In this document: piece by piece, positions 670-57,700 of the stretch | Layout of the letters: every line of letters starts with the position of its first letter | How positions within the stretch are numbered: position 1 is the stretch's first letter | Origin: Eledone cirrhosa | Lineage: Eukaryota | Assembly: GCA_964016885.1 (NCBI GenBank) | Contig: CAXHJY010000080.1 | Span: forward strand, 62,001 to 126,000 | Direction: 5' to 3' | DNA: 64,000 bases | The notes under the pieces: model-generated | Databases searched by the model: none | What the model saw: the letters and a program-made list of their open reading frames with translations, nothing else | What the model was told of the DNA's origin: nothing | Translations under genes and position numbers: made by a program

Positions 670-708
670 TAAGACCTGAAGTAACAACTCCACATCCAAA
701 ACCACCTG
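670..708 (+). CDS. Linker micro-exon A1 (VRPEVTTPHPKPP), 39 bp
   Basis: cttttccactttacag|taaga...ccacctg|gtaaga; phase 1-1; Pro/Thr-rich. Confidence 0.85.
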
Positions 709-24700: not shown

Positions 24701-27700
24701 TGATACTATTACTAATATCCAATCCCTCAGTCATTTATCAATATTGCTTACTGCCATTATATAAAATATCAGCTTTATTAAATATCTAAGTCAGCTTTTA
24801 CAATTCCTGCAGTTAACAGTTCTAATAATATCAGTAAATATCCCATGTCATTGCGCTACATACCTTTCCCTTCCACCTTCTATAATGTATGTTATCCTAT
24901 GATAACTCCTATTGCTTTATTAACAATGACTCATCCATGCGATATCTGTTTGTCAGTTAGAATCAAATAACTGAAATTATATCTACCTTCTTTTTTAATA
25001 TTATTTATTATCAAGGTTGAAATATTCTGTACAATCTCTACAGTATATTTATATTCTAGTGATAACATTCCATATAACATTGACCTTCCAAATATATAAC
25101 ATTGATTATGAACTAATTTTTAATGACCCAATACTCTGGCTGTGTATTAGTTTTACTGTTTCATTCTACAATTATTTCTCTTATAATTAACAGATTATTT
25201 TCTTCAATAAGTCGTTGTATTTCTAGAATCTTTGAATGATACATATTAATAAAAACTAATGGAGACAAGATTGCTGTACACTCAATCTTCACAATTACCA
25301 GCATTTATTGATGTAATTACTCTGTATTTAACACAGCTAATATCTCTGCTTTAAAACCTAGACATAACTTCCTAATATATACCATTAAGTCATAGATCCT
25401 TTACTATATGTGAAGATAATCTACCAATATTCTTTATAATGCTTCTACAAAATATGATGCCATAACTGTTATGACAATACCTGCAGCATGTAATTCTGAT
25501 AACGTCTACCAATATACTGAATTAGTGTATAATATATCTTATTTGCTTCATGTCATTCTAGTGGAATTTTTGTTTATAAAATATAAAATTTCACTGTTGC
25601 CATATCTTCAGCTTTATGCATGTGTGAATTATTGTAAATAATAGAAACTGTATTTCTGTATAAATGAGTAGAATCATTGATAACCAGTGATTATGTAACG
25701 TTTGTGATATACTGGAAAGGTAACTGTGATATGAATGGAAGGCTGAATAATACTTTTCTTGTGACAAACTCTAACTTTCAGATATTCTTGTGACAAACTG
25801 TGACTTTCACACAAATACTAATAGATTTATTACAGAACAACACTTATAATATATAGAACACATTACATAACAATTATTTCAATATTATCACTGGAATATT
25901 AATTAGTTATTCACAGTCAGCTATTGGAGATTAAACAGAAATATATATATATATAGTAACATATTTCAAAATATCAACATTTACATATTCTTATGAATAT
26001 ATAAAATATATTTCAATATTTCAGATTATCTAGCAATGTCTTACTAACAGATTTCACATCATATCTTTAAACTTACAACAATATTTTATTTCTCGCAGTT
26101 GTTGAAAAAACTCCAGCACCTGCTATTACATTACCAACTAAGGGTAAGGCCCTTGTACTCCTCAACATACTCTTTTATGTTATATTGATATCTTTATGTC
26201 TATGTTAATCATAGCTACCTCTTTCTTTGTCAATCTCTTATTTCTATATATAAACATTCATTGATCTGTCAGATGTTGTCAATATAATTCAGTAAATTAT
26301 ACTGTCTATCAGTAAAGTTCAATATATTTATCTATAGATGTAGTTATATCTTTTGTCTCTGTGATATATGTTTGGTATGTTTTCTATATTTGTTATTTCT
26401 AAGATACCATCTTGAAATATTTCTTATTATTTGTTTGATCTCCTGACAATGTAGTCTCCTCATATGTGGTCTGTAGTTTCATGTTGTGTTGTTTATTTGG
26501 AATATTGTTTTATGTAGAGTTGTTATTGTTTTGTTGTAGTGTTTTGGTAACAATTCAAACCATATCTTGTTATGTGAAGTTATATCTTACCTTAATAAGT
26601 TGATTTCTATATTGATATATTGTTTTTGTTGATTCTTTGTTATGTGACAGTATATCCCTATGTACCAGTTGATGGTTTGTTATGTATCAGAATATATAGT
26701 TATGTTGTAATATTATTTCAATATTACCCTGTCACCATCTTAACTGTTATGTACTGTATCAATACAATGTACATGTAATGTAACATATTGTTCTGTTATG
26801 TCACTCAGTCTATGTTAAAAGATAATGTTAGATTTATCTATCAACCACTCTACATTATTCTATTAGTTAAAAACTTATTATAATGTTCTCCAGGTGGCTG
26901 CGGCAATACAAAATCTGACATCATCTTCATTTTGGATTCCTCAACTAGTGTCCAAGCAGAAAATTTTCAGAAAATGCTCGATTTTGTAGTTGACTTTGTC
27001 TCTGCTGCTGATATTGACAGTGGCAATGTTAGAATCGGTGCAGTACTCTACAGTACAGATGTGAAAATACAATTCCATTTAAATGATTTCCAAAGTAAAC
27101 AAGAAATGATCAAGGCAGTTGGTGAAATTGCCTATGTTTATGGTAGTACAAACACTTATGGTGGACTAAACACAATGAGGACAGTAATGTTTACAAGAGA
27201 GAATGGTGACAGGCCATCTGTTGACAATATTGCCATACTTCTTACTGATGGTGTATCAAATATCAATTCATATCAGACTATTCCAGAAGCAGTGAAAGTT
27301 AGAGAAGATGGCATCCATATATATGCTATAGGTATTGGTCTAACTGATACTACAGAATTGAGCAAGATTTCATCACTTCCTGTCAGTGAAAATATGTTTG
27401 TTGTCACTGATTTCAACGAATTATCGAATCTCAAGGAAAGAATCTTTGAACAATATTGCCCAGGTATAGCAATTAGCATGTGATAACAAAGTGATACTGT
27501 ACTTGATACTATTACTAATATCCAATCCCTCAGTCATTTATCAATATTGCTTACTGCCATTATATAAAATATCAGCTTTATTAAATATCTAAGTCAGCTT
27601 TTACAATTCCTGCAGTTAACAGTTCTAATAATATCAGTAAATATCCCATGTCATTGCGCTACATACCTTTCCCTTCCACCTTCTATAATGTATGTTATCC

Positions 27701-33700: not shown

Positions 33701-36700
33701 CAATTACCAGCATTTATTGATGTAATTACTCTGTATTTAACACAGCTAATATCTCTGCTTTAAAACCTAGACATAAATTCCTAATATATACCATTAAGTC
33801 ATAGATCCTTTACTATATGTGAAGATAATCTACCAATATTCTTTATAATGCTTCTACAAAATATGATGCCATAACTGTTATGACAATACCTGCAGCATGT
33901 AATTGTGATAACGTCTACCAATATACTGAATTAGTGTATAATATATCTTATTTGCTTCATGTCATTCTAGTGGAATTTTTGTTTATAAAATATAAAATTT
34001 CACTGTTGCCATATCTTCAGCTTTATGCATGTGTGAATTATTGTAAATAATAGAAACTGTATTTCTGTATAAATGAGTAGAATCATTGATAACCAGTGAT
34101 TATGTAACTTTTGTGATATACTGGAAAGGTAACTGTGATATGAATGGAAGGCTGAATAATACTTTTCTTGTGACAAACTCTAACTTTCAGATATTCTTGT
34201 GACAAACTGTGACTTTCACACAAATACTAATAGATTTATTACAGAACAACACTTATAATATATAGAACACATTACATAACAATTATTTCAATATTATCAC
34301 TGGAATATTAATTAGTTATTCACAGTCAGCTATTGGAGATTAAACAGAAATATATATATATATAGTAACATATTTCAAAATATCAACATTTACATATTCT
34401 TATGAATATATAAAATATATTTCAATATTTCAGATTATCTAGCAATGTCTTACTAACAGATTTCACATCATATCTTTAAACTTACAACAATATTTTATTT
34501 CTCGCAGTTGTTGAAAAAACTCCAGCACCTGCTATTACATTACCAACTAAGGGTAAGGCCCTTGTACTCCTCAACATACTCTTTTATGTTATATTGATAT
34601 CTTTATGTCTATGTTAATCATAGCTACCTCTTTCTTTGTCAATCTCTTATTTCTATATATAAACATTCATTGATCTGTCAGATGTTGTCAATATAATTCA
34701 GTAAATTATACTGTCTATCAGTAAAGTTCAATATATTTATCTATAGATGTAGTTATATCTTTTGTCTCTGTGATATATGTTTGGTATGTTTTCTATATTT
34801 GTTATTTCTAAGATACCATCTTGAAATATTTCTTATTATTTGTTTGATCTTCTGACAATGTAGTCTCCTCATATGTGGTCTGTAGTTTCATGTTGTGTTG
34901 TTTATTTGGAATATTGTTTTATGTAGAGTTGTTATTGTTTTGTTGTAGTGTTTTGATAACAATTCAAACCATATCTTGTTATGTGAAGTTATATCTTACC
35001 TTAATAAGTTGATTTCTATATTGATATATTGTTTTTGTTGATTCTTTGTTATGTGACAATATATCCCTATGTACCAGTTGATGGTTTGTTATGTATCAGA
35101 ATATATAGTTATGTTGTAATATTATTTCAATATTACCCTGTCACCATCTTAACTGTTATGTACTGTATCAATACAATGTACATGTAATGTAACATATTGT
35201 TCTGTTATGTCACTCAGTCTATGTTAAAAGATAATGTTAGATTTATCTATCAGCCACTCTACATTATTCTATTAGTTAAAAACTTATTATAATGTTCTCC
35301 AGGTGGCTGCGGCAATACAAAATCTGACATCATCTTCATTTTGGATTCCTCAACTAGTGTTCAAGCAGAAAATTTTCAGAAAATGCTCGATTTTGTAGTT
35401 GACTTTGTCTCTGCTGCTGATATTGACAGTGGCAATGTTAGAATCGGTGCAGTACTCTACAGTACAGATGTGAAAATACAATTCCATTTAAATGATTTCC
35501 AAAGTAAACAACAAATGATCAAGGCAGTTGGTGAAATTGCCTATGTTTATGGTAGTACAAACACTTATGGTGGACTAAACACAATGAGGACAGTAATGTT
35601 TACAAGAGAGAATGGTGACAGGCCATCTGTTGACAATATTGCCATACTTCTTACTGATGGTGTATCAAATATCAATTCATATCAGACTATTCCAGAAGCA
35701 GTGAAAGTTAGAGAAGATGGCATCCATATATATGCTATAGGTATTGGTCTAACTGATACTACAGAATTGAGCAAGATTTCATCACTTCCTGTCAGTGAAA
35801 ATATGTTTGTTGTCACTGATTTCAACGAATTATCGAATCTCAAGGAAAGAATCTTTGAACAATATTGCCCAGGTATAGCAATTAGCATGTGATAACAAAG
35901 TCATACTGTACTTGATACTATTACTAATATCCAATCCCTCAGTCATTTATCAATATTGCTTACTGCCATTATATAAAATATCAGCTTTATTAAATATCTA
36001 AGTCAGCTTTTACAATTCCTGCAGTTAACAGTTCTAATAATATCAGTAAATATCCCATGTCATTGCGCTACATACCTTTCCCTTCCACCTTCTATAATGT
36101 ATGTTATCCTATGATAACTCCTATTGCTTTATTAACAATGACTCATCCATGCGATATCTGTTTGTCAGTTAGAATCAAATAACTGAAATTATATCTACCT
36201 TCTTTTTTAATATTATTTATTATCAAGGTTGAAATATTCTGTACAATCTCTACAGTATATTTATATTCTAGTGATAACATTCCATATAACATTGACCTTC
36301 CAAATATATAACATTGATTATGAACTAATTTTTAATGACCCAATACTCTGGCTGTGTATTAGTTTTACTGTTTCATTCTACAATTATTTCTCTTATAATT
36401 AACAGATTATTTTCTTCAATAAGTCGTTGTATTTCTAGAATCTTTGAATGATACATATTAATAAAAACTAATGGAGACAAGATTGCTGTACACTCAATCT
36501 TCACAATTACCAGCATTTATTGATGTAATTACTCTGTATTTAACACAGCTAATATCTCTGCTTTAAAACCTAGACATAAATTCCTAATATATACCATTAA
36601 GTCATAGATCCTTTACTATATGTGAAGATAATCTACCAATATTCTTTATAATGCTTCTACAAAATATGATGCCATAACTGTTATGACAATACCTGCAGCA

Positions 36701-39700
36701 TGTAATTCTGATAACGTCTACCAATATACTGAATTAGTGTATAATATATCTTATTTGCTTCATGTCATTCTAGTGGAATTTTTGTTTATAAAATATAAAA
36801 TTTCACTGTTGCCATATCTTCAGCTTTATGCATGTGTGAATTATTGTAAATAATAGAAACTGTATTTCTGTATAAATGAGTAGAATCATTGATAACCAGT
36901 GATTATGTAACGTTTGTGATATACTGGAAAGGTAACTGTGATATGAATGGAAGGCTGAATAATACTTTTCTTGTGACAAACTCTAACTTTCAGATATTCT
37001 TGTGACAAACTGTGACTTTCACACAAATACTAATAGATTTATTACAGAACAACACTTATAATATATAGAACACATTACATAACAATTATTTCAATATTAT
37101 CACTGGAATATTAATTAGTTATTCACAGTCAGCTATTGGAGATTAAACAGAAATATATATATATATAGTAACATATTTCAAAATATCAACATTTACATAT
37201 TCTTATGAATATATAAAATATATTTCAATATTTCAGATTATCTAGCAATGTCTTACTAACAGATTTCACATCATATCTTTAAACTTACAACAATATTTTA
37301 TTTCTCGCAGTTGTTGAAAAAACTCCAGCACCTGCTATTACATTACCAACTAAGGGTAAGGCCCTTGTACTCCTCAACATACTCTTTTATGTTATATTGA
37401 TATCTTTATGTCTATGTTAATCATAGCTACCTCTTTCTTTGTCAATCTCTTATTTCTATATATAAACATTCATTGATCTGTCAGATGTTGTCAATATAAT
37501 TCAGTAAATTATACTGTCTATCAGTAAAGTTCAATATATTTATCTATAGATGTAGTTATATCTTTTGTCTCTGTGATATATGTTTGGTATGTTTTCTATA
37601 TTTGTTATTTCTAAGATACCATCTTGAAATATTTCTTATTATTTGTTTGATCTCCTGACAATGTAGTCTCCTCATATGTGGTCTGTAGTTTCATGTTGTG
37701 TTGTTTATTTGGAATATTGTTTTATGTAGAGTTGTTATTGTTTTGTTGTAGTGTTTTGGTAACAATTCAAACCATATCTTGTTATGTGAAGTTATATCTT
37801 ACCTTAATAAGTTGATTTCTATATTGATATATTGTTTTTGTTGATTCTTTGTTATGTGGCAGTATATCCCTATGTACCAGTTGATGGTTTGTTATGTATC
37901 AGAATATATAGTTATGTTGTAATATTATTTCAATATTACCATGTCACCATCTTAACTGTTCTGTACTGTATCAATACAATGTACATGTAATGTAACATAT
38001 TGTTCTGTTATGTCACTCAGTCTATGTTAAAAGATAATGTTAGATTTATCTATCAACCACTCTACATTATTCTATTAGTTAAAAAATTATTATAATGTTC
38101 TCCAGGTGGCTGCGGCAATACAAAATCTGACATCATCTTCATTTTGGATTCCTCAACTAGTGTCCAAGCAGAAAATTTTCAGAAAATGCTCGATTTTGTA
38201 GTTGACTTTGTCTCTGCTGCTGATATTGACAGTGGCAATGTTAGAATCGGTGCAGTACTCTACAGTACAGATGTGAAAATACAATTCCATTTAAATGATT
38301 TCCAAAGTAAACAAGAAATGATCAAGGCAGTTGGTGAAATTGCCTATGTTTATGGTAGTACAAACACTTATGGTGGACTAAACACAATGAGGACAGTAAT
38401 GTTTACAAGAGAGAATGGTGACAGGCCATCTGTTGACAATATTGCCATACTTCTTACTGATGGTGTATCAAATATCAATTCATATCAGACTATTCCAGAA
38501 GCAGTGAAAGTTAGAGAAGATGGCATCCATATATATGCTATAGGTATTGGTCTAACTGATACTACAGAATTGAGCAAGATTTCATCACTTCCTGTCAGTG
38601 AAAATATGTTTGTTGTCACTGATTTCAACGAATTATCGAATCTCAAGGAAAGAATCTTTGAACAATATTGCCCAGGTATAGCAATTAGCATGTGATAACA
38701 AAGTGATACTGTACTTGATACTATTACTAATATCCAATCCCTCAGTCATTTATCAATATTGCTTACTGCCATTATATAAAATATCAGCTTTATTAAATAT
38801 CTAAGTCAGCTTTTACAATTCCTGCAGTTAACAGTTCTAATAATATCAGTAAATATCCCATGTCATTGCGCTACATACCTTTCCCTTCCACCTTCTATAA
38901 TGTATGTTATCCTATGATAACTCCTATTGCTTTATTAACAATGACTCATCCATGCGATATCTGTTTGTCAGTTAGAATCAAATAACTGAAATTATATCTA
39001 CCTTCTTTTTTAATATTATTTATTATCAAGGTTGAAATATTCTGTACAATCTCTACAGTATATTTATATTCTAGTGATAACATTCCATATAACATTGACC
39101 TTCCAAATATATAACATTGATTATGAACTAATTTTTAATGACCCAATACTCTGGCTGTGTATTAGTTTTACTGTTTCATTCTACAATTATTTCTCTTATA
39201 ATTAACAGATTATTTTCTTCAATAAGTCGTTATATTTCTAGAATCTTTGAATGATACATATTAATAAAAACTAATGGAGACAAGATTGCTGTACACTCAA
39301 TCTTCACAATTACCAGCATTTATTGATGTAATTACTCTGTATTTAACACAGCTAATATCTCTGCTTTAAAACCTAGACATAAATTCCTAATATATACCAA
39401 TAAGTCATCGATCCTTTACAATATTTGAAGATAATCTACCAATATTCTTTATAATGCTTCTACAAAATATGATGCCATAACTGTTATGACAATACCTGCA
39501 GCATGTAATTGTGATAACGTCTACCAATATACTGAATTAGTGTATAATATATCTTATTTGCTTCATGTCAATCTAGTGGAATTTTTGTTTATAATATATA
39601 AAATTTCACTGTTGCCATATCTTCAGCTTTATGCATGTGTGAATTATTGTAAATAATAGAAACTGTATTTCTGTATAAATGTGTAGAATCATTGATAATC

Positions 39701-42700
39701 AGTGATTATATAACGTTTGTGATATTCTGGAAATGTAACTGTGATATGAATGGAAGGCTGAATAATACTTTTCTTGTGACAAACTCTAACTTTCAGATAT
39801 TCTTGTGACAAACTGTGACTTTCACACAAATACTAATAGATTTTGTCTTCATATTGATATTCGTAATCTGTAATACCTAAATATTTACAAAGTAAATTAA
39901 ATTAATTTAATATTTAAACTTTATCTGTAAGAAATATGTCATATCTCTCTTGAAATATGTTTCTTACTTTCAATACCAACTGACTTAAAATATAACATTT
40001 ATATGTAATACACTTCAATATGTAGGTAATATATTACATTGTTTTACTTTCAATTTACTATCAACTATTTAGAATTCTATCTTAATGAGTTATGTGATTA
40101 TTATTTCCATAAAAGGAGGAGAAATAGTGACACCTAGTAGAGTTCCAATAATTGAAACAACCAGAAAGAGAGGTGAGATATTACTGAAACATATTTATAT
40201 ATACTTAGATATGTTACAGAACAACACTTATAATATATAGAACATATTACATAACAATTATTTCAATATCATCACTGGAATATTAATTAGTTATTCACAG
40301 TCAGCTATTGGAGATTAAACAGAAATATATATAGTAACATATTTCAAAATATCAACATTTACATATTCTTATGAATATATAAAGTATATTTCAATATTTC
40401 AGATTATCTAGCAATGTCTTACTAACAGATTTCACATCATATCTTTAAACTTACAACAATATTTTATTTCTCGCAGTTGTTGAAAAAACTCCAGCACCTG
40501 CTATTACATTACCAACTAAGGGTAAGGCCCTTGTACTCCTCAACATACTCTTTTATGTTATATTGATATCTTTATGTCTATGTTAATCATAGCTACCTCT
40601 TTCTTTGTCAATCTCTTATTTCTATATATAAACATTCATTGATCTGTCAGATGTTGTCAATATAATTCAGTAAATTATACTGTCTATCAGTAAAGTTCAA
40701 TATATTTATCTATAGATGTAGTTATATCTTTTGTCTCTGTGATATATGTTTGGTATGTTTTCTATATTTGTTATTTCTAAGATACCATCTTGAAATATTT
40801 CTTATTATTTGTTTGATCTCCTGACAATGTAGTCTCCTCATATATGGTCTGTAGTTTCATGTTGTGTTGTTTATTTGGAATATTGTTTTATGTAGAGTTG
40901 TTATTGTTTTGTTGTAGTGTTTTGGTAACAATTCAAACCATATCTTGTTATGTGAAGTTATATCTTACCTTAATAAGTTGATTTCTATATTGATATATTG
41001 TTTTTGTTGATTCTTTGTTATGTGACAGTATATCCCTATGTACCAGTTGATGGTTTGTTATGTATCAGAATATATAGTTATGTTGTAATATTATTTCAAT
41101 ATTACCATGTCACCATCTTAACTGTTCTGTACTGTATCAATACAATGTACATGTAATGTAACATATTGTTCTGTTATGTCACTCAGTCTATGTTAAAAGA
41201 TAATGTTAGATTTATCTATCAGCCACTCTACATTATTCTATTAGTTAAAAACTTATTATAATGTTCTCCAGGTGGCTGCGGCAATACAAAATCTGACATC
41301 ATCTTCATTTTGGATTCCTCAACTAGTGTCCAAGCAGAAAATTTTCAGAAAATGCTCGATTTTGTAGTTGACTTTGTCTCTGCTGCTGATATTGACAGTG
41401 GCAATGTTAGAATCGGTGCAGTACTCTACAGTACAGATGTGAAAATACAATTCCATTTAAATGATTTCCAAAGTAAACAACAAATGATCAAGGCAGTTGG
41501 TGAAATTGCCTATGTTTATGGTAGTACAAACACTTATGGTGGACTAAACACAATGAGGACAGTAATGTTTACAAGAGAGAATGGTGACAGGCCATCTGTT
41601 GACAATATTGCCATACTTCTTACTGATGGTGTATCAAATATCAATTCATATCAGACTATTCCAGAAGCAGTGAAAGTTAGAGAAGATGGCATCCATATAT
41701 ATGCTATAGGTATTGGTCTAACTGATACTACAGAATTGAGCAAGATTTCATCACTTCCTGTCAGTGAAAATATGTTTGTTGTCACTGATTTCAACGAATT
41801 ATCGAATCTCAAGGAAAGAATCTTTGAACAATATTGCCCAGGTATAGCAATTAGCATGTGATAACAAAGTCATACTGTACTTGATACTATTACTAATATC
41901 CAATCCCTCAGTCATTTATCAATATTGCTTACTGCCATTATATAAAATATCAGCTTTATTAAATATCTAAGTCAGCTTTTACAATTCCTGCAGTTAACAG
42001 TTCTAATAATATCAGTAAATATCCCATGTCATTGCGCTACATACCTTTCCCTTCCACCTTCTATAATGTATGTTATCCTATGATAACTCCTATTGCTTTA
42101 TTAACAATGACTCATCCATGCGATATCTGTTTGTCAGTTAGAATCAAATAACTGAAATTATATCTACCTTCTTTTTTAATATTATTTATTATCAAGGTTG
42201 AAATATTCTGTACAATCTCTACAGTATATTTATATTCTAGTGATAACATTCCATATAACATTGACCTTCCAAATATATAACATTGATTATGAACTAATTT
42301 TTAATGACCCAATACTCTGGCTGTGTATTAGTTTTACTGTTTCATTCTACAATTATTTCTCTTATAATTAACAGATTATTTTCTTCAATAAGTCGTTATA
42401 TTTCTAGAATCTTTGAATGATACATATTAATAAAAACTAATGGAGACAAGATTGCTGTACACTCAATCTTCACAATTACCAGCATTTATTGATGTAATTA
42501 CTCTGTATTTAACACAGCTAATATCTCTGCTTTAAAACCTAGACATAAATTCCTAATATATACCAATAAGTCATAGATCCTTTACAATATTTGAAGATAA
42601 TCTACCAATATTCTTTATAATGCTTCTACAAAATATGATCCCATAACTGTTATGACAATACCTGCAGCATGTAATTGTGATAACGTCTACCAATATACTG

Positions 42701-45700
42701 AATTAGTGTATAATATATCTTATTTGCTTCATGTCAATCTAGTGGAATTTTTGTTTATAATATATAAAATTTCACTGTTGCCATATCTTCAGCTTTATGC
42801 ATGTGTGAATTATTGTAAATAATAGAAACTGTATTTCTGTATAAATGTGTAGAATCATTGATAATCAGTGATTATATAACGTTTGTGATATTCTGGAAAT
42901 GTAACTGTGATATGAATGGAAGGCTGAATAATACTTTTCTTGTGACAAACTCTAACTTTCAGATATTCTTGTGACAAACTGTGACTTTCACACAAATACT
43001 AATAGATTTTGTCTTCATATTGATATTCGTAATCTGTAATACCTAAATATTTACAAAGTAAATTAAATTAATTTAATATTTAAACTTTATCTGTAAGAAA
43101 TATGTCATATCTCTCTTGAAATATGTTTCTTACTTTCAATACCAACTGACTTAAAATATAACATTTATATGTAATACACTTCAATATGTAGGTAATATAT
43201 TACATTGTTTTACTTTCAATTTACTATCAACTATTTAGAATTCTATCTTAATGAGTTATGTGATTATTATTTCCATAAAAGGAGGAGAAATAGTGACACC
43301 TAGTAGAGTTCCAATAATTGAAACAACCAGAAAGAGAGGTGAGATATTACTGAAACATATTTATATATACTTAGATATGTTACAGAACAACACTTATAAT
43401 ATATAGAACATATTACATAACAATTATTTCAATATCATCACTGGAATATTAATTAGTTATTCACAGTCAGCTATTGGAGATTAAACAGAAATATATATAG
43501 TAACATATTTCAAAATATCAACATTTACATATTCTTATGAATATATAAAGTATATTTCAATATTTCAGATTATCTAGCAATGTCTTACTAACAGATTTCA
43601 CATCATATCTTTAAACTTACAACAATATTTTATTTCTCGCAGTTGTTGAAAAAACTCCAGCACCTGCTATTACATTACCAACTAAGGGTAAGGCCCTTGT
43701 ACTCCTCAACATACTCTTTTATGTTATATTGATATCTTTATGTCTATGTTAATCATAGCTACCTCTTTCTTTGTCAATCTCTTATTTCTATATATAAACA
43801 TTCATTGATCTGTCAGATGTTGTCAATATAATTCAGTAAATTATACTGTCTATCAGTAAAGTTCAATATATTTATCTATAGATGTAGTTATATCTTTTGT
43901 CTCTGTGATATATGTTTGGTATGTTTTCTATATTTGTTATTTCTAAGATACCATCTTGAAATATTTCTTATTATTTGTTTGATCTCCTGACAATGTAGTC
44001 TCCTCATATATGGTCTGTAGTTTCATGTTGTGTTGTTTATTTGGAATATTGTTTTATGTAGAGTTGTTATTGTTTTGTTGTAGTGTTTTGGTAACAATTC
44101 AAACCATATCTTGTTATGTGAAGTTATATCTTACCTTAATAAGTTGATTTCTATATTGATATATTGTTTTTGTTGATTCTTTGTTATGTGACAGTATATC
44201 CCTATGTACCAGTTGATGGTTTGTTATGTATCAGAATATATAGTTATGTTGTAATATTATTTCAATATTACCATGTCACCATCTTAACTGTTCTGTACTG
44301 TATCAATACAATGTACATGTAATGTAACATATTGTTCTGTTATGTCACTCAGTCTATGTTAAAAGATAATGTTAGATTTATCTATCAGCCACTCTACATT
44401 ATTCTATTAGTTAAAAACTTATTATAATGTTCTCCAGGTGGCTGCGGCAATACAAAATCTGACATCATCTTCATTTTGGATTCCTCAACTAGTGTCCAAG
44501 CAGAAAATTTTCAGAAAATGCTCGATTTTGTAGTTGACTTTGTCTCTGCTGCTGATATTGACAGTGGCAATGTTAGAATCGGTGCAGTACTCTACAGTAC
44601 AGATGTGAAAATACAATTTCATTTAAATGATTTCCAAAGTAAACAACAAATGATCATGGCAGTTGGTGAAATTGCCTATGTTTATGGTAGTACAAACACT
44701 TATGGTGGACTAAACACAATGAGGACAGTAATGTTTACAAGAGAGAATGGTGACAGGCCATCTGTTGACAATATTGCCATACTTCTTACTGATGGTGTAT
44801 CAAATATCAATTCATATCAGACTATTCCAGAAGCAGTGAAAGTTAGAGAAGATGGCATCCATATATATGCTATAGGTATTGGTCTAACTGATACTACAGA
44901 ATTGAGCAAGATTTCATCACTTCCTGTCAGTGAAAATATGTTTGTTGTCACTGACTTCAACGAATTATCGAATCTCAAGGAAAGAATCTTTGAACAATAT
45001 TGCCCAGGTATAGCAATTAGCATGTGATAACAAAGTGATACTGTACTTGATACTATTACTAATATCCAATCCCTCAGGCAATTAATATTCTAAAGATATA
45101 TCATTTATCAATATTGCTTACTGCCATTATATAAAATATCAGCTTTATTAAATATCTAAGTCAGCTTTTACAATTCCTGCAGTTAACAGTTCTAATAATA
45201 TCAGTAAATATCCCATGTCATTGCGCTACATACCTTTCCCTTCCACCTTCTATAATGTATGTTATCCTATGATAACTCCTATTGCTTTATTAACAATGAC
45301 TCATCCATGCGATATCTGTTTGTCAGTTAGAATCAAATAACTGAAATTATATCTACCTTCTTTTTTAATATTATTTATTATCAAGGTTGAAATATTCTGT
45401 ACAATCTCTACAGTATATTTATATTCTAGTGATAACATTCCATATAACATTGACCTTCCAAATATATAACATTGATTATGAACTAATTTTTAATGACCCA
45501 ATACTCTGGCTGTGTATTAGTTTTACTGTTTCATTCTACAATTATTTCTCTTATAATTAACAGATTATTTTCTTCAATAAGTCGTTGTATTTCTAGAATC
45601 TTTGAATGATTCATATTAATAAAAACTAATGGAGACTAGATTGCTGTACACTCAATCTTCACAATTACCAGCATTTATTGATGTAATTACTCTGTATTTA

Positions 45701-48700
45701 ACACAGCTAATATCTCTGGTTTAAAACCTAGACATAAATTCCTAATATATACCAATAAGTCATAGATCCTTTACTATATGTGAAGATAATCTACCAATAT
45801 TCTTTATAATGCTTCTACAAAATATGATGCCATAACTGTTATGACAATACCTGCAGCATGTAATTCTGATAACGTCTACCAATATACTGAATTAGTGTAT
45901 AATATATCTTATTTGCTTCATGTCATTCTAGTGGAATTTTTGTTTATAAAATATAAAATTTCACTGTTGCCATATCTTCAGCTTTATGCATGTGTGAATT
46001 ATTGTAAATAATAGAAACTGTATTTCTGTATAAATGTGTAGATTAATTGATAACCAGTGATTATGTAACGTTTGTGATATTCTGGAAAGGTAACTGTGAT
46101 ATGAATGGAAGGCTGAATAATACTTTTCTTGTGACAAACTCTAACTTTCAGATATTCTTGTGACAAACTGTGACTTTCACACAAATACTGATAGATTTAT
46201 TACAGAACAACACTTATAATATATAGAACACATTACATAACAATTATTTCAATATCATCACTGGAATATTAATTAGTTATTCACAGTCAGCTATTGGAGA
46301 TTAAACAGAAATATATATAGTAACATATTTCAAAATATCAACATTTATATATTCTTATGAATATATAAATTATATTTCAATATTTCAGATTATCTATCAA
46401 TGTCTTACTAACAGATTTCACATCATATCTTTAAACTTACAACAATATTTTATTTCTCGCAGTTGTTGAAAAAACGCCAGCACCTGCTATTACATTACCA
46501 ACTAAGGGTAAGGCCCTTGTACTCCTCAACATACTCTTTTATGTTATATTGATATCTTTATGTCTATGTTAATCATAGCTACCTCTTTCTTTGTCAATCT
46601 CTTATTTCTATATATAAACATTCATTGATCTGTCAGATGTTGTCAATATAATTCAGTAAATTATACTGTCTATCAGTAAAGTTCAATATATTTATCTATA
46701 GATGTAGTTATATCTTTTGTCTCTGTGATATATGATTGGTATGTTTTCTATATTTGTTATTTCTAAGATACCATCTTGAAATATTTCTTATTATTTGTTT
46801 GATCTCCTGACAATGTAGTTTCCTCATATGTGGTCTGTAGTTTCATGTTGTGTTGTTTATTTGGAATATTGTTTTATGTAGAGTTGTTATTGTTTTGTTG
46901 TAGTGTTTTGGTAACAATTCAAACCATATCTTGTTATGTGAAGTTATATCTTACCTTAATAAGTTGATTTCTATATTGATATATTGTTTTTGTTGATTCT
47001 TTGTTATGTGACTGTATATCCCTATGTACCAGTTGATGGTTTGTTATGTATCAGAATATATAGTTATGTTGTAATATTATTTCAATATTACCATGTCACC
47101 ATCTTAACCGTTCAGTACTGTATCAATACAATGTACATGTAATGTAACATATTGTTCTGTTATGTCACTCAGTCTATGTTAAAAGATAATGTTAGATTTA
47201 TCTATCAGCCACTCTACATTATTCTATTAGTTAAAAACTTATTATAATGTTCTCCAGGTGGCTGCGGCAATACAAAATCTGACATCATCTTCATTTTGGA
47301 TTCCTCAACTAGTGTCCAAGCAGAAAATTTTCAGAAAATGCTCGATTTTGTAGTTGACTTTGTCTCTGCTGCTGATATTGACAGTGGCAATGTTAGAATC
47401 GGTGCAGTACTCTACAGTACAGATGTGAAAATACAATTTCATTTAAATGATTTCCAAAGTAAACAACAAATGATCATGGCAGTTGGTGAAATTGCCTATG
47501 TTTATGGTAGTACAAACACTTATGGTGGACTAAACACAATGAGGACAGTAATGTTTACAAGAGAGAATGGTGACAGGCCATCTGTTGACAATATTGCCAT
47601 ACTTCTTACTGATGGTGTATCAAATATCAATTCATATCAGACTATTCCAGAAGCAGTGAAAGTTAGAGAAGATGGCATCCATATATATGCTATAGGTATT
47701 GGTCTAACTGATACTACAGAATTGAGCAAGATTTCATCACTTCCTGTCAGTGAAAATATGTTTGTTGTCACTGATTTCAACGAATTATCGAATCTCAAGG
47801 AAAGAATCTTTGAACAATATTGCCCAGGTATAGCAATTAGCATGTGATAACAAAGTCATACTGTACTTGATACTATTACTAATATCCAATCCCTCAGTCA
47901 TTTATCAATATTGCTTACTGCCATTATATAAAATATCAGCTTTATTAAATATCTAAGTCAGCTTTTACAATTCCTGCAGTTAACAGTTCTAATAATATCA
48001 GTAAATATCCCATGTCATTGCGCTACATACCTTTCCCTTCCACCTTCTATAATGTATGTTATCCTATGATAACTCCTATTGCTTTATTAACAATGACTCA
48101 TCCATGCGATATCTGTTTGTCAGTTAGAATCAAATAACTGAAATTATATCTACCTTCTTTTTTAATATTATTTATTATCAAGGTTGAAATATTCTGTACA
48201 ATCTCTACAGTATATTTATATTCTAGTGATAACATTCCATATAACATTGACCTTCCAAATATATAACATTGATTATGAACTAATTTTTAATGACCCAATA
48301 CTCTGGCTGTGTATTAGTTTTACTGTTTCATTCTACAATTATTTCTCTTATAATTAACAGATTATTTTCTTCAATAAGTCGTTATATTTCTAGAATCTTA
48401 GAATGATTCATATTAATAAAAACTAATGGAGACAAGATTGCTGTACACTCAATCTTCACAATTACCAGCATTTATTGATGTAATTACTCTGTATTTAACA
48501 CAGCTAATATCTCTGCTTTAAAACCTAGACATAAATTCCTAATATATACCATTAAGTCATAGATCCTTTACTATATGTGAAGATAATCTACCAATATTCT
48601 TTATAATGCTTCTACAAAATATGATGCCATAACTGTTATGACAATACCTGCAGCATGTAATTGTGATAACGTCTACCAATATACTGAATTAGTGTATAAT

Positions 48701-51700
48701 ATATCTTATTTGCTTCATGTCATTCTAGTGGAATTTTTGTTTATAAAATATAAAATTTCACTGTTGCCATATCTTCAGCTTTATGCATGTGTGAATTATT
48801 GTAAATAATAGAAACTGTATTTCTGTATAAATGAGTAGAATCATTGATAACCAGTGATTATGTAACTTTTGTGATATACTGGAAAGGTAACTGTGATATG
48901 AATGGAAGGCTGAATAATACTTTTCTTGTGACAAACTCTAACTTTCAGATATTCTTGTGACAAACTGTGACTTTCACACAAATACTAATAGATTTATTAC
49001 AGAACAACACTTATAATATATAGAACACATTACATAACAATTATTTCAATATTATCACTGGAATATTAATTAGTTATTCACAGTCAGCTATTGGAGATTA
49101 AACAGAAATATATATATATATAGTAACATATTTCAAAATATCAACATTTACATATTCTTATGAATATATAAAATATATTTCAATATTTCAGATTATCTAG
49201 CAATGTCTTACTAACAGATTTCACATCATATCTTTAAACTTACAACAATATTTTATTTCTCGCAGTTGTTGAAAAAACTCCAGCACCTGCTATTACATTA
49301 CCAACTAAGGGTAAGGCCCTTGTACTCCTCAACATACTCTTTTATGTTATATTGATATCTTTATGTCTATGTTAATCATAGCTACCTCTTTCTTTGTCAA
49401 TCTCTTATTTCTATATATAAACATTCATTGATCTGTCAGATGTTGTCAATATAATTCAGTAAATTATACTGTCTATCAGTAAAGTTCAATATATTTATCT
49501 ATAGATGTAGTTATATCTTTTGTCTCTGTGATATATGTTTGGTATGTTTTCTATATTTGTTATTTCTAAGATACCATCTTGAAATATTTCTTATTATTTG
49601 TTTGATCTTCTGACAATGTAGTCTCCTCATATGTGGTCTGTAGTTTCATGTTGTGTTGTTTATTTGGAATATTGTTTTATGTAGAGTTGTTATTGTTTTG
49701 TTGTAGTGTTTTGATAACAATTCAAACCATATCTTGTTATGTGAAGTTATATCTTACCTTAATAAGTTGATTTCTATATTGATATATTGTTTTTGTTGAT
49801 TCTTTGTTATGTGACAGTATATCCCTATGTACCAGTTGATGGTTTGTTATGTATCAGAATATATAGTTATGTTGTAATATTATTTCAATATTACCCTGTC
49901 ACCATCTTAACTGTTATGTACTGTATCAATACAATGTACATGTAATGTAACATATTGTTCTGTTATGTCACTCAGTCTATGTTAAAAGATAATGTTAGAT
50001 TTATCTATCAGCCACTCTACATTATTCTATTAGTTAAAAACTTATTATAATGTTCTCCAGGTGGCTGCGGCAATACAAAATCTGACATCATCTTCATTTT
50101 GGATTCCTCAACTAGTGTTCAAGCAGAAAATTTTCAGAAAATGCTCGATTTTGTAGTTGACTTTGTCTCTGCTGCTGATATTGACAGTGGCAATGTTAGA
50201 ATCGGTGCAGTACTCTACAGTACAGATGTGAAAATACAATTCCATTTAAATGATTTCCAAAGTAAACAACAAATGATCAAGGCAGTTGGTGAAATTGCCT
50301 ATGTTTATGGTAGTACAAACACTTATGGTGGACTAAACACAATGAGGACAGTAATGTTTACAAGAGAGAATGGTGACAGGCCATCTGTTGACAATATTGC
50401 CATACTTCTTACTGATGGTGTATCAAATATCAATTCATATCAGACTATTCCAGAAGCAGTGAAAGTTAGAGAAGATGGCATCCATATATATGCTATAGGT
50501 ATTGGTCTAACTGATACTACAGAATTGAGCAAGATTTCATCACTTCCTGTCAGTGAAAATATGTTTGTTGTCACTGATTTCAACGAATTATCGAATCTCA
50601 AGGAAAGAATCTTTGAACAATATTGCCCAGGTATAGCAATTAGCATGTGATAACAAAGTCATACTGTACTTGATACTATTACTAATATCCAATCCCTCAG
50701 TCATTTATCAATATTGCTTACTGCCATTATATAAAATATCAGCTTTATTAAATATCTAAGTCAGCTTTTACAATTCCTGCAGTTAACAGTTCTAATAATA
50801 TCAGTAAATATCCCATGTCATTGCGCTACATACCTTTCCCTTCCACCTTCTATAATGTATGTTATCCTATGATAACTCCTATTGCTTTATTAACAATGAC
50901 TCATCCATGCGATATCTGTTTGTCAGTTAGAATCAAATAACTGAAATTATATCTACCTTCTTTTTTAATATTATTTATTATCAAGGTTGAAATATTCTGT
51001 ACAATCTCTACAGTATATTTATATTCTAGTGATAACATTCCATATAACATTGACCTTCCAAATATATAACATTGATTATGAACTAATTTTTAATGACCCA
51101 ATACTCTGGCTGTGTATTAGTTTTACTGTTTCATTCTACAATTATTTCTCTTATAATTAACAGATTATTTTCTTCAATAAGTCGTTGTATTTCTAGAATC
51201 TTTGAATGATTCATATTAATAAAAACTAATGGAGACTAGATTGCTGTACACTCAATCTTCACAATTACCAGCATTTATTGATGTAATTACTCTGTATTTA
51301 ACACAGCTAATATCTCTGGTTTAAAACCTAGACATAAATTCCTAATATATACCAATAAGTCATAGATCCTTTACTATATGTGAAGATAATCTACCAATAT
51401 TCTTTATAATGCTTCTACAAAATATGATGCCATAACTGTTATGACAATACCTGCAGCATGTAATTCTGATAACGTCTACCAATATACTGAATTAGTGTAT
51501 AATATATCTTATTTGCTTCATGTCATTCTAGTGGAATTTTTGTTTATAAAATATAAAATTTCACTGTTGCCATATCTTCAGCTTTATGCATGTGTGAATT
51601 ATTGTAAATAATAGAAACTGTATTTCTGTATAAATGTGTAGATTAATTGATAACCAGTGATTATGTAACGTTTGTGATATTCTGGAAAGGTAACTGTGAT

Positions 51701-54700
51701 ATGAATGGAAGGCTGAATAATACTTTTCTTGTGACAAACTCTAACTTTCAGATATTCTTGTGACAAACTGTGACTTTCACACAAATACTGATAGATTTAT
51801 TACAGAACAACACTTATAATATATAGAACACATTACATAACAATTATTTCAATATCATCACTGGAATATTAATTAGTTATTCACAGTCAGCTATTGGAGA
51901 TTAAACAGAAATATATATAGTAACATATTTCAAAATATCAACATTTATATATTCTTATGAATATATAAATTATATTTCAATATTTCAGATTATCTATCAA
52001 TGTCTTACTAACAGATTTCACATCATATCTTTAAACTTACAACAATATTTTATTTCTCGCAGTTGTTGAAAAAACGCCAGCACCTGCTATTACATTACCA
52101 ACTAAGGGTAAGGCCCTTGTACTCCTCAACATACTCTTTTATGTTATATTGATATCTTTATGTCTATGTTAATCATAGCTACCTCTTTCTTTGTCAATCT
52201 CTTATTTCTATATATAAACATTCATTGATCTGTCAGATGTTGTCAATATAATTCAGTAAATTATACTGTCTATCAGTAAAGTTCAATATATTTATCTATA
52301 GATGTAGTTATATCTTTTGTCTCTGTGATATATGATTGGTATGTTTTCTATATTTGTTATTTCTAAGATACCATCTTGAAATATTTCTTATTATTTGTTT
52401 GATCTCCTGACAATGTAGTTTCCTCATATGTGGTCTGTAGTTTCATGTTGTGTTGTTTATTTGGAATATTGTTTTATGTAGAGTTGTTATTGTTTTGTTG
52501 TAGTGTTTTGGTAACAATTCAAACCATATCTTGTTATGTGAAGTTATATCTTACCTTAATAAGTTGATTTCTATATTGATATATTGTTTTTGTTGATTCT
52601 TTGTTATGTGACTGTATATCCCTATGTACCAGTTGATGGTTTGTTATGTATCAGAATATATAGTTATGTTGTAATATTATTTCAATATTACCATGTCACC
52701 ATCTTAACCGTTCAGTACTGTATCAATACAATGTACATGTAATGTAACATATTGTTCTGTTATGTCACTCAGTCTATGTTAAAAGATAATGTTAGATTTA
52801 TCTATCAGCCACTCTACATTATTCTATTAGTTAAAAACTTATTATAATGTTCTCCAGGTGGCTGCGGCAATACAAAATCTGACATCATCTTCATTTTGGA
52901 TTCCTCAACTAGTGTCCAAGCAGAAAATTTTCAGAAAATGCTCGATTTTGTAGTTGACTTTGTCTCTGCTGCTGATATTGACAGTGGCAATGTTAGAATC
53001 GGTGCAGTACTCTACAGTACAGATGTGAAAATACAATTTCATTTAAATGATTTCCAAAGTAAACAACAAATGATCATGGCAGTTGGTGAAATTGCCTATG
53101 TTTATGGTAGTACAAACACTTATGGTGGACTAAACACAATGAGGACAGTAATGTTTACAAGAGAGAATGGTGACAGGCCATCTGTTGACAATATTGCCAT
53201 ACTTCTTACTGATGGTGTATCAAATATCAATTCATATCAGACTATTCCAGAAGCAGTGAAAGTTAGAGAAGATGGCATCCATATATATGCTATAGGTATT
53301 GGTCTAACTGATACTACAGAATTGAGCAAGATTTCATCACTTCCTGTCAGTGAAAATATGTTTGTTGTCACTGATTTCAACGAATTATCGAATCTCAAGG
53401 AAAGAATCTTTGAACAATATTGCCCAGGTATAGCAATTAGCATGTGATAACAAAGTCATACTGTACTTGATACTATTACTAATATCCAATCCCTCAGTCA
53501 TTTATCAATATTGCTTACTGCCATTATATAAAATATCAGCTTTATTAAATATCTAAGTCAGCTTTTACAATTCCTGCAGTTAACAGTTCTAATAATATCA
53601 GTAAATATCCCATGTCATTGCGCTACATACCTTTCCCTTCCACCTTCTATAATGTATGTTATCCTATGATAACTCCTATTGCTTTATTAACAATGACTCA
53701 TCCATGCGATATCTGTTTGTCAGTTAGAATCAAATAACTGAAATTATATCTACCTTCTTTTTTAATATTATTTATTATCAAGGTTGAAATATTCTGTACA
53801 ATCTCTACAGTATATTTATATTCTAGTGATAACATTCCATATAACATTGACCTTCCAAATATATAACATTGATTATGAACTAATTTTTAATGACCCAATA
53901 CTCTGGCTGTGTATTAGTTTTACTGTTTCATTCTACAATTATTTCTCTTATAATTAACAGATTATTTTCTTCAATAAGTCGTTATATTTCTAGAATCTTA
54001 GAATGATTCATATTAATAAAAACTAATGGAGACAAGATTGCTGTACACTCAATCTTCACAATTACCAGCATTTATTGATGTAATTACTCTGTATTTAACA
54101 CAGCTAATATCTCTGCTTTAAAACCTAGACATAAATTCCTAATATATACCATTAAGTCATAGATCCTTTACTATATGTGAAGATAATCTACCAATATTCT
54201 TTATAATGCTTCTACAAAATATGATGCCATAACTGTTATGACAATACCTGCAGCATGTAATTGTGATAACGTCTACCAATATACTGAATTAGTGTATAAT
54301 ATATCTTATTTGCTTCATGTCATTCTAGTGGAATTTTTGTTTATAAAATATAAAATTTCACTGTTGCCATATCTTCAGCTTTATGCATGTGTGAATTATT
54401 GTAAATAATAGAAACTGTATTTCTGTATAAATGAGTAGAATCATTGATAACCAGTGATTATGTAACTTTTGTGATATACTGGAAAGGTAACTGTGATATG
54501 AATGGAAGGCTGAATAATACTTTTCTTGTGACAAACTCTAACTTTCAGATATTCTTGTGACAAACTGTGACTTTCACACAAATACTAATAGATTTATTAC
54601 AGAACAACACTTATAATATATAGAACACATTACATAACAATTATTTCAATATTATCACTGGAATATTAATTAGTTATTCACAGTCAGCTATTGGAGATTA

Positions 54701-57700
54701 AACAGAAATATATATATATATAGTAACATATTTCAAAATATCAACATTTACATATTCTTATGAATATATAAAATATATTTCAATATTTCAGATTATCTAG
54801 CAATGTCTTACTAACAGATTTCACATCATATCTTTAAACTTACAACAATATTTTATTTCTCGCAGTTGTTGAAAAAACTCCAGCACCTGCTATTACATTA
54901 CCAACTAAGGGTAAGGCCCTTGTACTCCTCAACATACTCTTTTATGTTATATTGATATCTTTATGTCTATGTTAATCATAGCTACCTCTTTCTTTGTCAA
55001 TCTCTTATTTCTATATATAAACATTCATTGATCTGTCAGATGTTGTCAATATAATTCAGTAAATTATACTGTCTATCAGTAAAGTTCAATATATTTATCT
55101 ATAGATGTAGTTATATCTTTTGTCTCTGTGATATATGTTTGGTATGTTTTCTATATTTGTTATTTCTAAGATACCATCTTGAAATATTTCTTATTATTTG
55201 TTTGATCTTCTGACAATGTAGTCTCCTCATATGTGGTCTGTAGTTTCATGTTGTGTTGTTTATTTGGAATATTGTTTTATGTAGAGTTGTTATTGTTTTG
55301 TTGTAGTGTTTTGATAACAATTCAAACCATATCTTGTTATGTGAAGTTATATCTTACCTTAATAAGTTGATTTCTATATTGATATATTGTTTTTGTTGAT
55401 TCTTTGTTATGTGACAGTATATCCCTATGTACCAGTTGATGGTTTGTTATGTATCAGAATATATAGTTATGTTGTAATATTATTTCAATATTACCCTGTC
55501 ACCATCTTAACTGTTATGTACTGTATCAATACAATGTACATGTAATGTAACATATTGTTCTGTTATGTCACTCAGTCTATGTTAAAAGATAATGTTAGAT
55601 TTATCTATCAGCCACTCTACATTATTCTATTAGTTAAAAACTTATTATAATGTTCTCCAGGTGGCTGCGGCAATACAAAATCTGACATCATCTTCATTTT
55701 GGATTCCTCAACTAGTGTTCAAGCAGAAAATTTTCAGAAAATGCTCGATTTTGTAGTTGACTTTGTCTCTGCTGCTGATATTGACAGTGGCAATGTTAGA
55801 ATCGGTGCAGTACTCTACAGTACAGATGTGAAAATACAATTCCATTTAAATGATTTCCAAAGTAAACAAGAAATGATCAAGGCAGTTGGTGAAATTGCCT
55901 ATGTTTATGGTAGTACAAACACTTATGGTGGACTAAACACAATGAGGACAGTAATGTTTACAAGAGAGAATGGTGACAGGCCATCTGTTGACAATATTGC
56001 CATACTTCTTACTGATGGTGTATCAAATATCAATTCATATCAGACTATTCCAGAAGCAGTGAAAGTTAGAGAAGATGGCATCCATATATATGCTATAGGT
56101 ATTGGTCTAACTGATACTACAGAATTGAGCAAGATTTCATCACTTCCTGTCAGTGAAAATATGTTTGTTGTCACTGATTTCAACGAATTATCGAATCTCA
56201 AGGAAAGAATCTTTGAACAATATTGCCCAGGTATAGCAATTAGCATGTGATAACAAAGTCATACTGTACTTGATACTATTACTAATATCCAATCCCTCAG
56301 TCATTTATCAATATTGCTTACTGCCATTATATAAAATATCAGCTTTATTAAATATCTAAGTCAGCTTTTACAATTCCTGCAGTTAACAGTTCTAATAATA
56401 TCAGTAAATATCCCATGTCATTGCGCTACATACCTTTCCCTTCCACCTTCTATAATGTATGTTATCCTATGATAACTCCTATTGCTTTATTAACAATGAC
56501 TCATCCATGCGATATCTGTTTGTCAGTTAGAATCAAATAACTGAAATTATATCTACCTTCTTTTTTAATATTATTTATTATCAAGGTTGAAATATTCTGT
56601 ACAATCTCTACAGTATATTTATATTCTAGTGATAACATTCCATATAACATTGACCTTCCAAATATATAACATTGATTATGAACTAATTTTTAATGACCCA
56701 ATACTCTGGCTGTGTATTAGTTTTACTGTTTCATTCTACAATTATTTCTCTTATAATTAACAGATTATTTTCTTCAATAAGTCGTTATATTTCTAGAATC
56801 TTAGAATGATTCATATTAATAAAAACTAATGGAGACAAGATTGCTGTACACTCAATCTTCACAATTACCAGCATTTATTGATGTAATTACTCTGTATTTA
56901 ACACAGCTAATATCTCTGCTTTAAAACCTAGACATAAATTCCTAATATATACCATTAAGTCATAGATCCTTTACTATATGTGAAGATAATCTACCAATAT
57001 TCTTTATAATGCTTCTACAAAATATGATGCCATAACTGTTATGACAATACCTGCAGCATGTAATTGTGATAACGTCTACCAATATACTGAATTAGTGTAT
57101 AATATATCTTATTTGCTTCATGTCATTCTAGTGGAATTTTTGTTTATAAAATATAAAATTTCACTGTTGCCATATCTTCAGCTTTATGCATGTGTGAATT
57201 ATTGTAAATAATAGAAACTGTATTTCTGTATAAATGAGTAGAATCATTGATAACCAGTGATTATGTAACTTTTGTGATATACTGGAAAGGTAACTGTGAT
57301 ATGAATGGAAGGCTGAATAATACTTTTCTTGTGACAAACTCTAACTTTCAGATATTCTTGTGACAAACTGTGACTTTCACACAAATACTAATAGATTTAT
57401 TACAGAACAACACTTATAATATATAGAACACATTACATAACAATTATTTCAATATTATCACTGGAATATTAATTAGTTATTCACAGTCAGCTATTGGAGA
57501 TTAAACAGAAATATATATATATATAGTAACATATTTCAAAATATCAACATTTACATATTCTTATGAATATATAAAATATATTTCAATATTTCAGATTATC
57601 TAGCAATGTCTTACTAACAGATTTCACATCATATCTTTAAACTTACAACAATATTTTATTTCTCGCAGTTGTTGAAAAAACTCCAGCACCTGCTATTACA

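Follow-up and report, generated by a model that had tools for sequence, protein, structure and literature searches.

The stretch analysed here is a 64-kb window (64,000 nucleotides) of the genome of the octopod Eledone cirrhosa (contig CAXHJY010000080.1 of assembly GCA_964016885.1, positions 62,001 to 126,000; positions below are counted from the first letter of the window), and 24 VWA exons follow one another along its plus strand in tandem, seven of an A type and 17 of a B type. Every VWA exon is 570 bp long, is in phase 1-1 and gives a Pfam VWA match. Linker exons accompany them, one of 39 bp in each A unit and one of 45 bp in each of the 17 B units. The B units are of two kinds, short and long, with 2803 bp against 3166 bp in the comparison made here (2797-3166 bp over all units), and what sets the long ones apart is a 369-bp block with a further candidate exon of 57 bp, which we call exon X. 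We describe below why X is very likely a real coding exon, judging from orthologous proteins, and why its absence from most units is likely due to a deletion which has spread along the array.

Exon X and the 369-bp block

A BLAST search with positions 39837-40210 against the window gave exactly three matches (39837-40210, 43003-43376 and 62998-63371), each identical at 374 of 374 positions, and in an alignment of all 17 B units the corresponding block of 369 columns was confined to B9, B10 and B17 (3/17), with identical copies. This is just what the original prediction, made from the letters alone, had said of the long units; the 374 bp given there span one copy of a flanking repeat to the other, while the block proper has 369 bp. 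Long and short units differ by less than 369 bp because the long units also have a 6-bp deletion that is common to some short units. Unit B17 is a mosaic, with a left flank of the majority type and a block and right flank of the long type.

The predicted 57-bp phase 1-1 exon can be read as described in all three copies of the block (Table 1). It is stop-free in phase 1, its GC content is 39% against 23% for the block, and it has the properties of a symmetric cassette exon: AG before and GT after it, a length that is a multiple of three, equal end phases and no stop. Its donor (GAG/GTGAGA), which had been called good, scores 7.65 and thereby ranks first of the 78 candidates that keep the frame across the intronic span of B9, and the donor of the 45-bp linker exon scores 7.03; it needs to be mentioned that the scoring matrix was a crude one, with approximate base frequencies. 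The acceptor of X, on the other hand, is the weakest among the six exon types examined, being AAG, whereas CAG or TAG is found in the other five. Micro-exon cut-offs usually lie at 27 or 51 nt. With its 57 nt X exceeds these cut-offs, and the term "optional" holds for it only as far as presence or absence in the DNA is meant, exon skipping not being what the DNA displays.

Several further observations concern the surroundings of X. Three tandem in-frame acceptors (AAG, GAG and GAG) lie at 40108-40121. A shorter exon of 30 bp, starting from the in-frame AG at 40141-40142 and encoding only the nine conserved residues of X, was thought unlikely; the sequence upstream of that AG is purine-rich. 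The intron that follows the VWA-B exon extends over 1440 bp to X in long units (38676-40115) and over 1438 bp to the linker exon in short ones (35873-37310), and this near-equal distance to the first acceptor is probably a coincidence. DNA likeness to X and its flanks was noted at 36863-36944 of a short unit, together with a moderate donor; as it was weak (55 of 2000 shuffles, in one of several tests) and absent in B9, we treated it as chance.

Table 1. Positions of the features in and around the VWA array (counted within the window).
Feature	Positions	Strand	Description
369-bp block, copy 1 (unit B9)	39843-40211	+	intron flank, exon X, intron flank; absent in 14/17 B units
369-bp block, copy 2 (unit B10)	43009-43377	+	exon X at 43282-43338
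369-bp block, copy 3 (unit B17)	63004-63372	+	exon X at 63277-63333; mosaic unit
Candidate exon X (unit B9)	40116-40172	+	57 bp, phase 1-1; 19-codon Thr/Pro-type linker peptide ending Arg-Lys-Arg; AAG acceptor, strong donor
Left copy of 7-bp imperfect direct repeat (TAGATTT)	39837-39843	+	likely deletion breakpoint
Right copy of 7-bp imperfect direct repeat (TAGATAT)	40206-40212	+	exactly 369 bp downstream of the left copy
Likely deletion junction (short unit B8)	37034-37050	+	same 17-mer in 14/14 short units
VWA-B exon of unit B9	38106-38675	+	570 bp, phase 1-1, whole VWA domain, DxSxS..T..D motif intact
VWA-B exon of unit B10	41272-41841	+	
45-bp linker exon of unit B9	40477-40521	+	15 codons, begins Val-Val-Glu-Lys; 15/15 identical to Octopus sinensis
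A array	1-11747	+	7 units of ~1640 bp, each with a 39-bp linker exon and a 570-bp VWA-A exon
B array	14848-64000	+	a diverged linker exon at the start (14848-14892), followed by 17 units, each 2797-3166 bp long

Orthologous segments and the linker exons of the family

Counterparts of X are present in RefSeq models of Octopus sinensis. The model XP_036368516.1 (P0141 in our collection; LOC115223644, 4624 residues), which came from the cluster of an O. bimaculoides match, carries the 19-residue segment GGQPEPTRQPPIIEMTTKR after 5/5 of its B-type domains, with 9/19 residues identical to X, and in XP_029654099.2 (P0293) a variant identical to X at 12/19 positions follows the only B-type domain (1/1). 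The ungapped score of X against the P0141 segment was equalled in 3 of 200,000 shuffles. When 306,741 19-residue words of the proteins then collected were scored against X, this segment, with its five copies, took the first five places. Global alignment scores of X against the P0141 and P0293 segments were reached by 1 and 0 of 20,000 shuffles, respectively. In P0293 the last nine residues of X and the 15-residue linker behind them are identical to those of the window, and the VWA-B domains of the two species share 158 of 189 residues.

A cuttlefish model (P0005) has a 23-residue linker, in two copies, which can be aligned to the O. sinensis segment (8 of 20,000 shuffles); its likeness to X is weaker (254 of 20,000), and there is hardly any to the P0293 variant (1134 of 20,000). 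This linker is unlike the peptide of the 45-bp linker exon (1/15 identical) and ends in Ala-Arg, without a dibasic pair. Because orthologous segments occur in the O. sinensis models, we judge X to be very likely a real coding exon. When the linker itself was searched for (P0141 residues 322-384, among shorter proteins), one of 26 candidates, P0134, was left, and no transcript fragments of other cephalopods came up. The 150 best representatives added other multi-VWA proteins and no new orthologue of X. In a metagenome scan for orthologous DNA, 598 pattern matches were obtained and 0 confirmed.

LOC115223644 and the neighbouring XP_029654099.2, XP_029650176.1/XP_036368327.1 and XP_029650172.2 correspond to the same gene as the one described here, sharing with it a homogenised A-type array (87-88% identical), a B-type array (82-86% for near-complete domains), the X-like segment and an identical 15-residue linker; their names are automatic and the proteins uncharacterised. 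The two species differ in which linker exon varies. Successive units of P0141 carry the 45-bp linker 2, 1, 0 and 0 times, and the RefSeq isoforms X1 and X2 (XP_029650176.1 and XP_036368327.1) differ by exactly this exon, with the reservation that isoform calls in such arrays can also arise from reads of other units. Thus, the linker exon that varies in O. sinensis is the 45-bp one next to X, and X is constant there, whereas in the window the 45-bp exon is constant and X varies.

Other mollusc multi-VWA proteins, compared as one group (Acanthosepion pharaonis CAE1248468.1, Saccostrea cucullata XP_062587338-342, Haliotis rufescens LOC124110407, Sinanodonta KAL3854705.1 and the mussel protein PTMP1, PDB 4cn8), are likewise built of VWA domains in tandem, which in many cases hardly differ within a species, with short Thr/Pro linkers that vary between isoforms; four Saccostrea isoforms, for instance, differ in Thr/Pro linker segments. 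Unlike X, none of their short linkers examined contains Lys-Arg, and only the two octopods showed a linker exon that some repeat units have and others lack. Near-identical VWA arrays are found in Haliotis rufescens and Sinanodonta woodiana (P0302 and P0146) as well, so homogenised arrays of this domain recur across molluscs; in Haliotis, seven equal-scoring VWA copies are followed by very basic Cys-rich repeats.

It is worth adding what was seen of linkers elsewhere in the window and in its orthologues. Positions 11747-11791, exactly where the A7 intron departs from the A repeat, probably hold a decayed copy of the 45-bp linker exon (29/45 identical; the AG is missing and GT is replaced by TT; 31 of 2000 shuffles). 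At the corresponding place, ahead of the first B domain, two linker segments are present in P0293. After the last B unit, P0141 continues into a mucin-like stretch (residues 998-1389, with Pro/Thr/Ala/Val repeats resembling the 15-residue linker), diverged VWA domains and an EGF-VWA tail. This resemblance hints that the 45-bp linker exon and the mucin stalk may share an origin.

Origin of the short units and turnover of the array

X follows 6/6 of the O. sinensis B-type domains that have a linker on record. As the cuttlefish linker provides a counterpart too, the long unit with X is likely the ancestral state, the short units being derived. The original prediction saw cut marks placed at only some repeats, and the direction implied by this wording should probably be reversed. 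A single junction is common to all 14 short units, and it falls between the imperfect 7-bp repeats, 369 bp apart. The short units are likely to have arisen from one microhomology-guided deletion, later spread by unequal exchange.

The array bears other traces of exchange between its units. B units differ from each other by 0-34 substitutions, B9 and B10 by 4 sites. Short units are of at least two types, ~30 sites apart, which is about as far as they are from the long units B9 and B10 (22-33 sites); hence, the deletion junction either predates the split of these types or was moved by conversion. A higher-order duplication is also visible, with B1-B4 (15673-26893) matching B11-B14 (44438-55660) at 3-9 differing sites; a 23-bp insertion is found in B1 and B11 only, and B12 and B14 are identical. 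Both this match and the mosaic tracts of single-nucleotide differences were recognised by eye. Mosaic units and a higher-order match of this kind are marks of unequal exchange, as in the concerted evolution of domain repeats, and the units are indeed closer within the species than between species: the 17 units encode four proteins, while identity to O. sinensis is 158/189. High repeat purity, recombination between units and a volatile unit number were described for such repeats by Schuler and Bornberg-Bauer in 2016 (PMC5100051), and we see the same here. What differs is that whole exon-intron units are homogenised in the window, with a structural exon polymorphism among them; neither "VWA" nor "Willebrand" occurs in the main text of that paper.

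Both states of the unit are also present in public reads. All of the 3/3 runs, which come from a single sample, have contigs for the block as well as for the skip junction, at block/skip depths of 185.6/219.5, 96.5/111.4 and 91.7/137.6, which sum to 1.02-1.03 times the flank. Calculated as the ratio of the two branch depths within a run (depth is not copy number, and the sample is possibly the source of the assembly), the share of long units appears to be ~40-46%, in comparison to 18% in the window. At position 40384 the long-type base won the contig in run X1 and lost it in run X3, which agrees with near-equal shares. According to the original prediction, a precursor cut after X would fall into pieces of at least 16, 1 and 7 VWA domains. 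These counts are right for the window, with its seven A and 17 B domains, but since the long share in the sample is so much higher, they are local to the window and unrepresentative.

The VWA domains themselves look intact. The DxSxS, Thr and Asp positions are near-invariant in 26 aligned homologues, and VWA-B is 82-86% identical to near-complete O. sinensis domains and 75-77% to those of cuttlefish. With X the repeat has 224 residues, in short units 205. The four proteins encoded by the 17 VWA-B copies differ at three positions, with Gln or Glu at codon 70, Lys, Met or Asn at codon 73 and one change in B1 only; codons 70 and 73 sit on one helix. The long units are not distinguished by any single-nucleotide difference in their exons. 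The diverged first linker exon of the B array has intact splice sites and connects A7 to B1, and A7 has no A-type linker after it. As all phases are 1, the A and B arrays can form one reading frame, although O. sinensis has separate RefSeq models for them. The last B unit, B17, is interrupted by the end of the window. No homologue of X was detected in the A intron or the spacer between the arrays (85-97 of 100 shuffles score as high). This AT-rich spacer holds a GC-rich inverted repeat (12398-12502; arms of 45 nt, 98% complementary, 15 nt apart) that resembles a tiny fold-back element; Rfam gave 0 matches across 11300-18500, the inverted repeat included.

The Lys-Arg motif and the choice between readings

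We consider it the most probable explanation, and one more likely than not, that X is an ancestral Thr/Pro linker exon, that its presence in three of 17 units results from one spreading 369-bp deletion, and that it sets the length of the spacer between domains (35 residues with X, 16 without it) in a chain that stays uncut. In this scenario, the ancestral coleoid B unit would have consisted of a VWA exon and X, and octopods would have gained the second, 45-bp linker exon. In the lineage of Eledone, the microhomology-guided deletion would then have taken out X together with both splice sites, the frame being kept because all exons are in phase 1-1, and unequal crossing-over and conversion would spread the short unit and reshuffle the order of units. 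In long units X would be spliced in via its AAG acceptor, adding a flexible, probably O-glycosylated extension of 19 residues with a basic tip. The product would be a chain of metal-binding VWA domains joined by spacers of two lengths, and the turnover of the array would produce the order of these as a side effect.

Three facts make us cautious about this explanation, apart from those concerning cleavage. The evidence that X is an exon comes from gene models; secretion of the protein is deduced from the type of its domains only; and its N-terminus lies outside the window, the O. sinensis models starting mid-domain. A further challenge comes from the basic end of X. X ends in Lys-Arg, as P2 and P1 of a furin-type site do, and this pair is found in 3/3 octopus variants (window, P0141 and P0293). 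Moreover, in a set of 33 distinct close-family linkers (drawn from 302 proteins, with 8-70 residues, at most one Cys and both flanking scores of at least 150, a filter that excluded the cuttlefish linker), Lys-Arg occurs in four, all of them X linkers; R-x-K/R-R occurs in 0/33, and at least 30% Pro plus Thr in 26/33. Across the junction of X and the 15-residue linker, P0293 agrees with the window in all 24 residues, but in no more than three of the first ten residues of X (Fisher p 2e-5 for this split, which was picked after the data had been seen), and such conservation exceeds what a plain spacer needs. On the other hand, X is 70% purine, and its conserved 3' half could instead reflect purine-rich splicing enhancers near the donor.

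One might propose, reversing the polarity of the original prediction, that the Lys-Arg of this real exon is a proprotein-convertase site (of PC1/PC2/PC5 type) and the long units are cut points. Cleavage would then have reduced the ancestral array to pieces approaching single domains; with the deletion spreading, longer blocks would stay uncut, and skipping of the next exon, by turning P1' Val into Gly, would raise cleavage. Besides the conservation just mentioned, the predicted structure speaks for it, as in the AlphaFold2 model of P0293 residues 241-279 have a pLDDT (predicted local distance difference test) below 50 between two well-folded domains, with the site at 258-260, so the candidate cut site is predicted to be exposed in a disordered linker. 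The site fits the known motif X-X-K-R (X being any residue) of PC1/PC2-type substrates, for which the precision is, however, no more than 48% even in neuropeptide precursors (PMC5045867, Table 1). There is also a precedent among VWA proteins of molluscs, Pinctada Pif and Mytilus BMSP, both cut into two chains, Pif at RMKR (PMC11291548). Theirs is, however, a single cut between unlike domains, Pif has the P4 Arg that X lacks, and no chitin-binding or LG domains such as those of Pif and BMSP are encoded in the window. Likewise, exon 6B of ApoER2 (murine 7B) is a short optional exon that brings a furin site into an ectodomain of repeated domains (PMC7410921); as described there, this site is a full RXXR, is controlled by splicing and was cut in vitro, whereas X has no RXXR and varies in the genome, unit by unit.

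The residues around the pair fit such a site poorly. Furin sites follow the consensus R-X-K/R-R (PMC3083689), and a passage that cites Nakayama 1997 and Tian 2009 (PMC5129557) describes aliphatic residues at P1' as unsuitable for this enzyme. The lack of a P4 Arg had been recognised in the original prediction, and P4 is indeed Thr in the window, P0141 and P0293; what had not been weighed is that P6 is Glu in all three and that P1' is Val in all three long units of the window. A basic P6 can substitute for the P4 Arg in furin sites. Thr at P4 and P5 could, furthermore, carry O-glycans, which would be unfavourable, given that O-glycans beside a convertase site, on its P' side, block cleavage of ANGPTL3 (PMC7527996). 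As to conservation of the basic motif in orthologues, another point raised earlier, Lys-Arg is kept in both O. sinensis variants, P0141 has Thr in place of the third Arg, and the cuttlefish linker ends in Ala-Arg; besides, the exon is gone from 14/17 units. It must be added in favour of cleavage that furin rules derive from mammalian enzymes, that PC1/PC2-type enzymes accept plain Lys-Arg, and that in P0141 this pair is followed by Gly in 3/5 copies, where the 45-bp linker is missing; one of the three borders on the mucin-like region. Should any convertase act here, the switch may lie in the next exon rather than in X. Taking all this together, we regard cleavage after X as doubtful and the cut-point explanation as a whole as rather unlikely. 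Its fullest form, a convertase-processed polyprotein with an ancestral Lys-Arg exon in each repeat, a deletion erasing the marks unit by unit and a loss of the next exon turning a poor P1' Val into a permissive Gly, is also an unlikely proposal.

Two further explanations of the block deserve comment. X may be a former exon, now mostly skipped or decaying, so that the deletion removes something dispensable. This is suggested by the weak AAG acceptor with purines at -3 to -6, by the P0293 exon starting one residue earlier (which implies a further AG, 3 nt before that of the window, at a place that reads AA here), by the divergence of the first ten residues (3/10) next to a well-conserved VWA-B domain, and by the probable decayed linker copy at the end of the A array. 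However, X has retained its length, its frame, its stop-free state, the best donor of the intron and 9/9 of its C-terminal residues; P0141 and the cuttlefish model share a Gly-Gly start register, so the downstream acceptor appears usable; and the block is still present in ~40-46% of the units of the one public sample. Decay thus seems improbable to us. According to the other explanation, the block is a small transposon that duplicated its target site on insertion, or else an assembly artefact, and the exon-like reading is due to chance. Near-identical arrays are prone to assembly errors, and the short direct repeat flanking the block is like a target-site duplication. Yet terminal inverted repeats are lacking at the block ends, which are not complementary, the orthologous peptide occupies the same position in O. 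sinensis, and both block and skip junction were recovered in all three runs, with depths adding up to that of the flank, albeit from a sample that may be the assembly source. We rejected an insertion of a miniature inverted-repeat transposable element (MITE) for its missing inverted ends and the orthologue in the outgroup O. sinensis, and consider chance or artefact in general hardly credible.

As to the function, the anatomy of P0141, with its VWA arrays, mucin-like stretch and EGF-VWA tail, leads us to propose that this giant octopus protein is probably secreted and acts as a cross-linker of mucus or matrix. The combination of VWA and EGF domains recalls matrilins. The best sequence match in PDB is collagen VI alpha-3 (9han, with eight matched stretches), but unlike in collagen VI no collagen triple-helix Pfam domain is listed for P0002, the representative of the octopus orthologue cluster, and none was seen in P0141; the database names are similarity labels. 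VWA and "collagen alpha/cartilage matrix" proteins are reported from skin mucus of O. vulgaris (PMC11431876), and an argonaut eggcase preprint mentions such proteins; in what these sources offered, neither could be tied to this gene. No paper on the gene was found in the open-access and bioRxiv literature, where five accessions had no match and queries for octopus or cephalopod VWA proteins led only to proteomic or shell-protein papers.

Taken one by one, the ingredients are already known: domain repeats that evolve in concert, linker exons that vary, and exons that bring a cleavage site. What is new, as far as our searches of this literature reach, is that the units of a homogenised VWA array differ in having or lacking a linker exon. 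The window offers a clean case of an exon deletion caught midway in spreading along a homogenised exon-intron array, and a second octopus mirrors it for the neighbouring linker exon. This means that spacer length in long VWA chains can evolve with the domains unchanged. Should the Lys-Arg of X be cut after all, the structure of the array would be a heritable dial for how large the multimers of this probable mucus or matrix protein become. The outcome would resemble the multimer control of von Willebrand factor, but it would be set in the DNA. In the case of a convertase-processed polyprotein, array turnover would directly set heritable VWA multimer sizes, which would differ between individuals and species.

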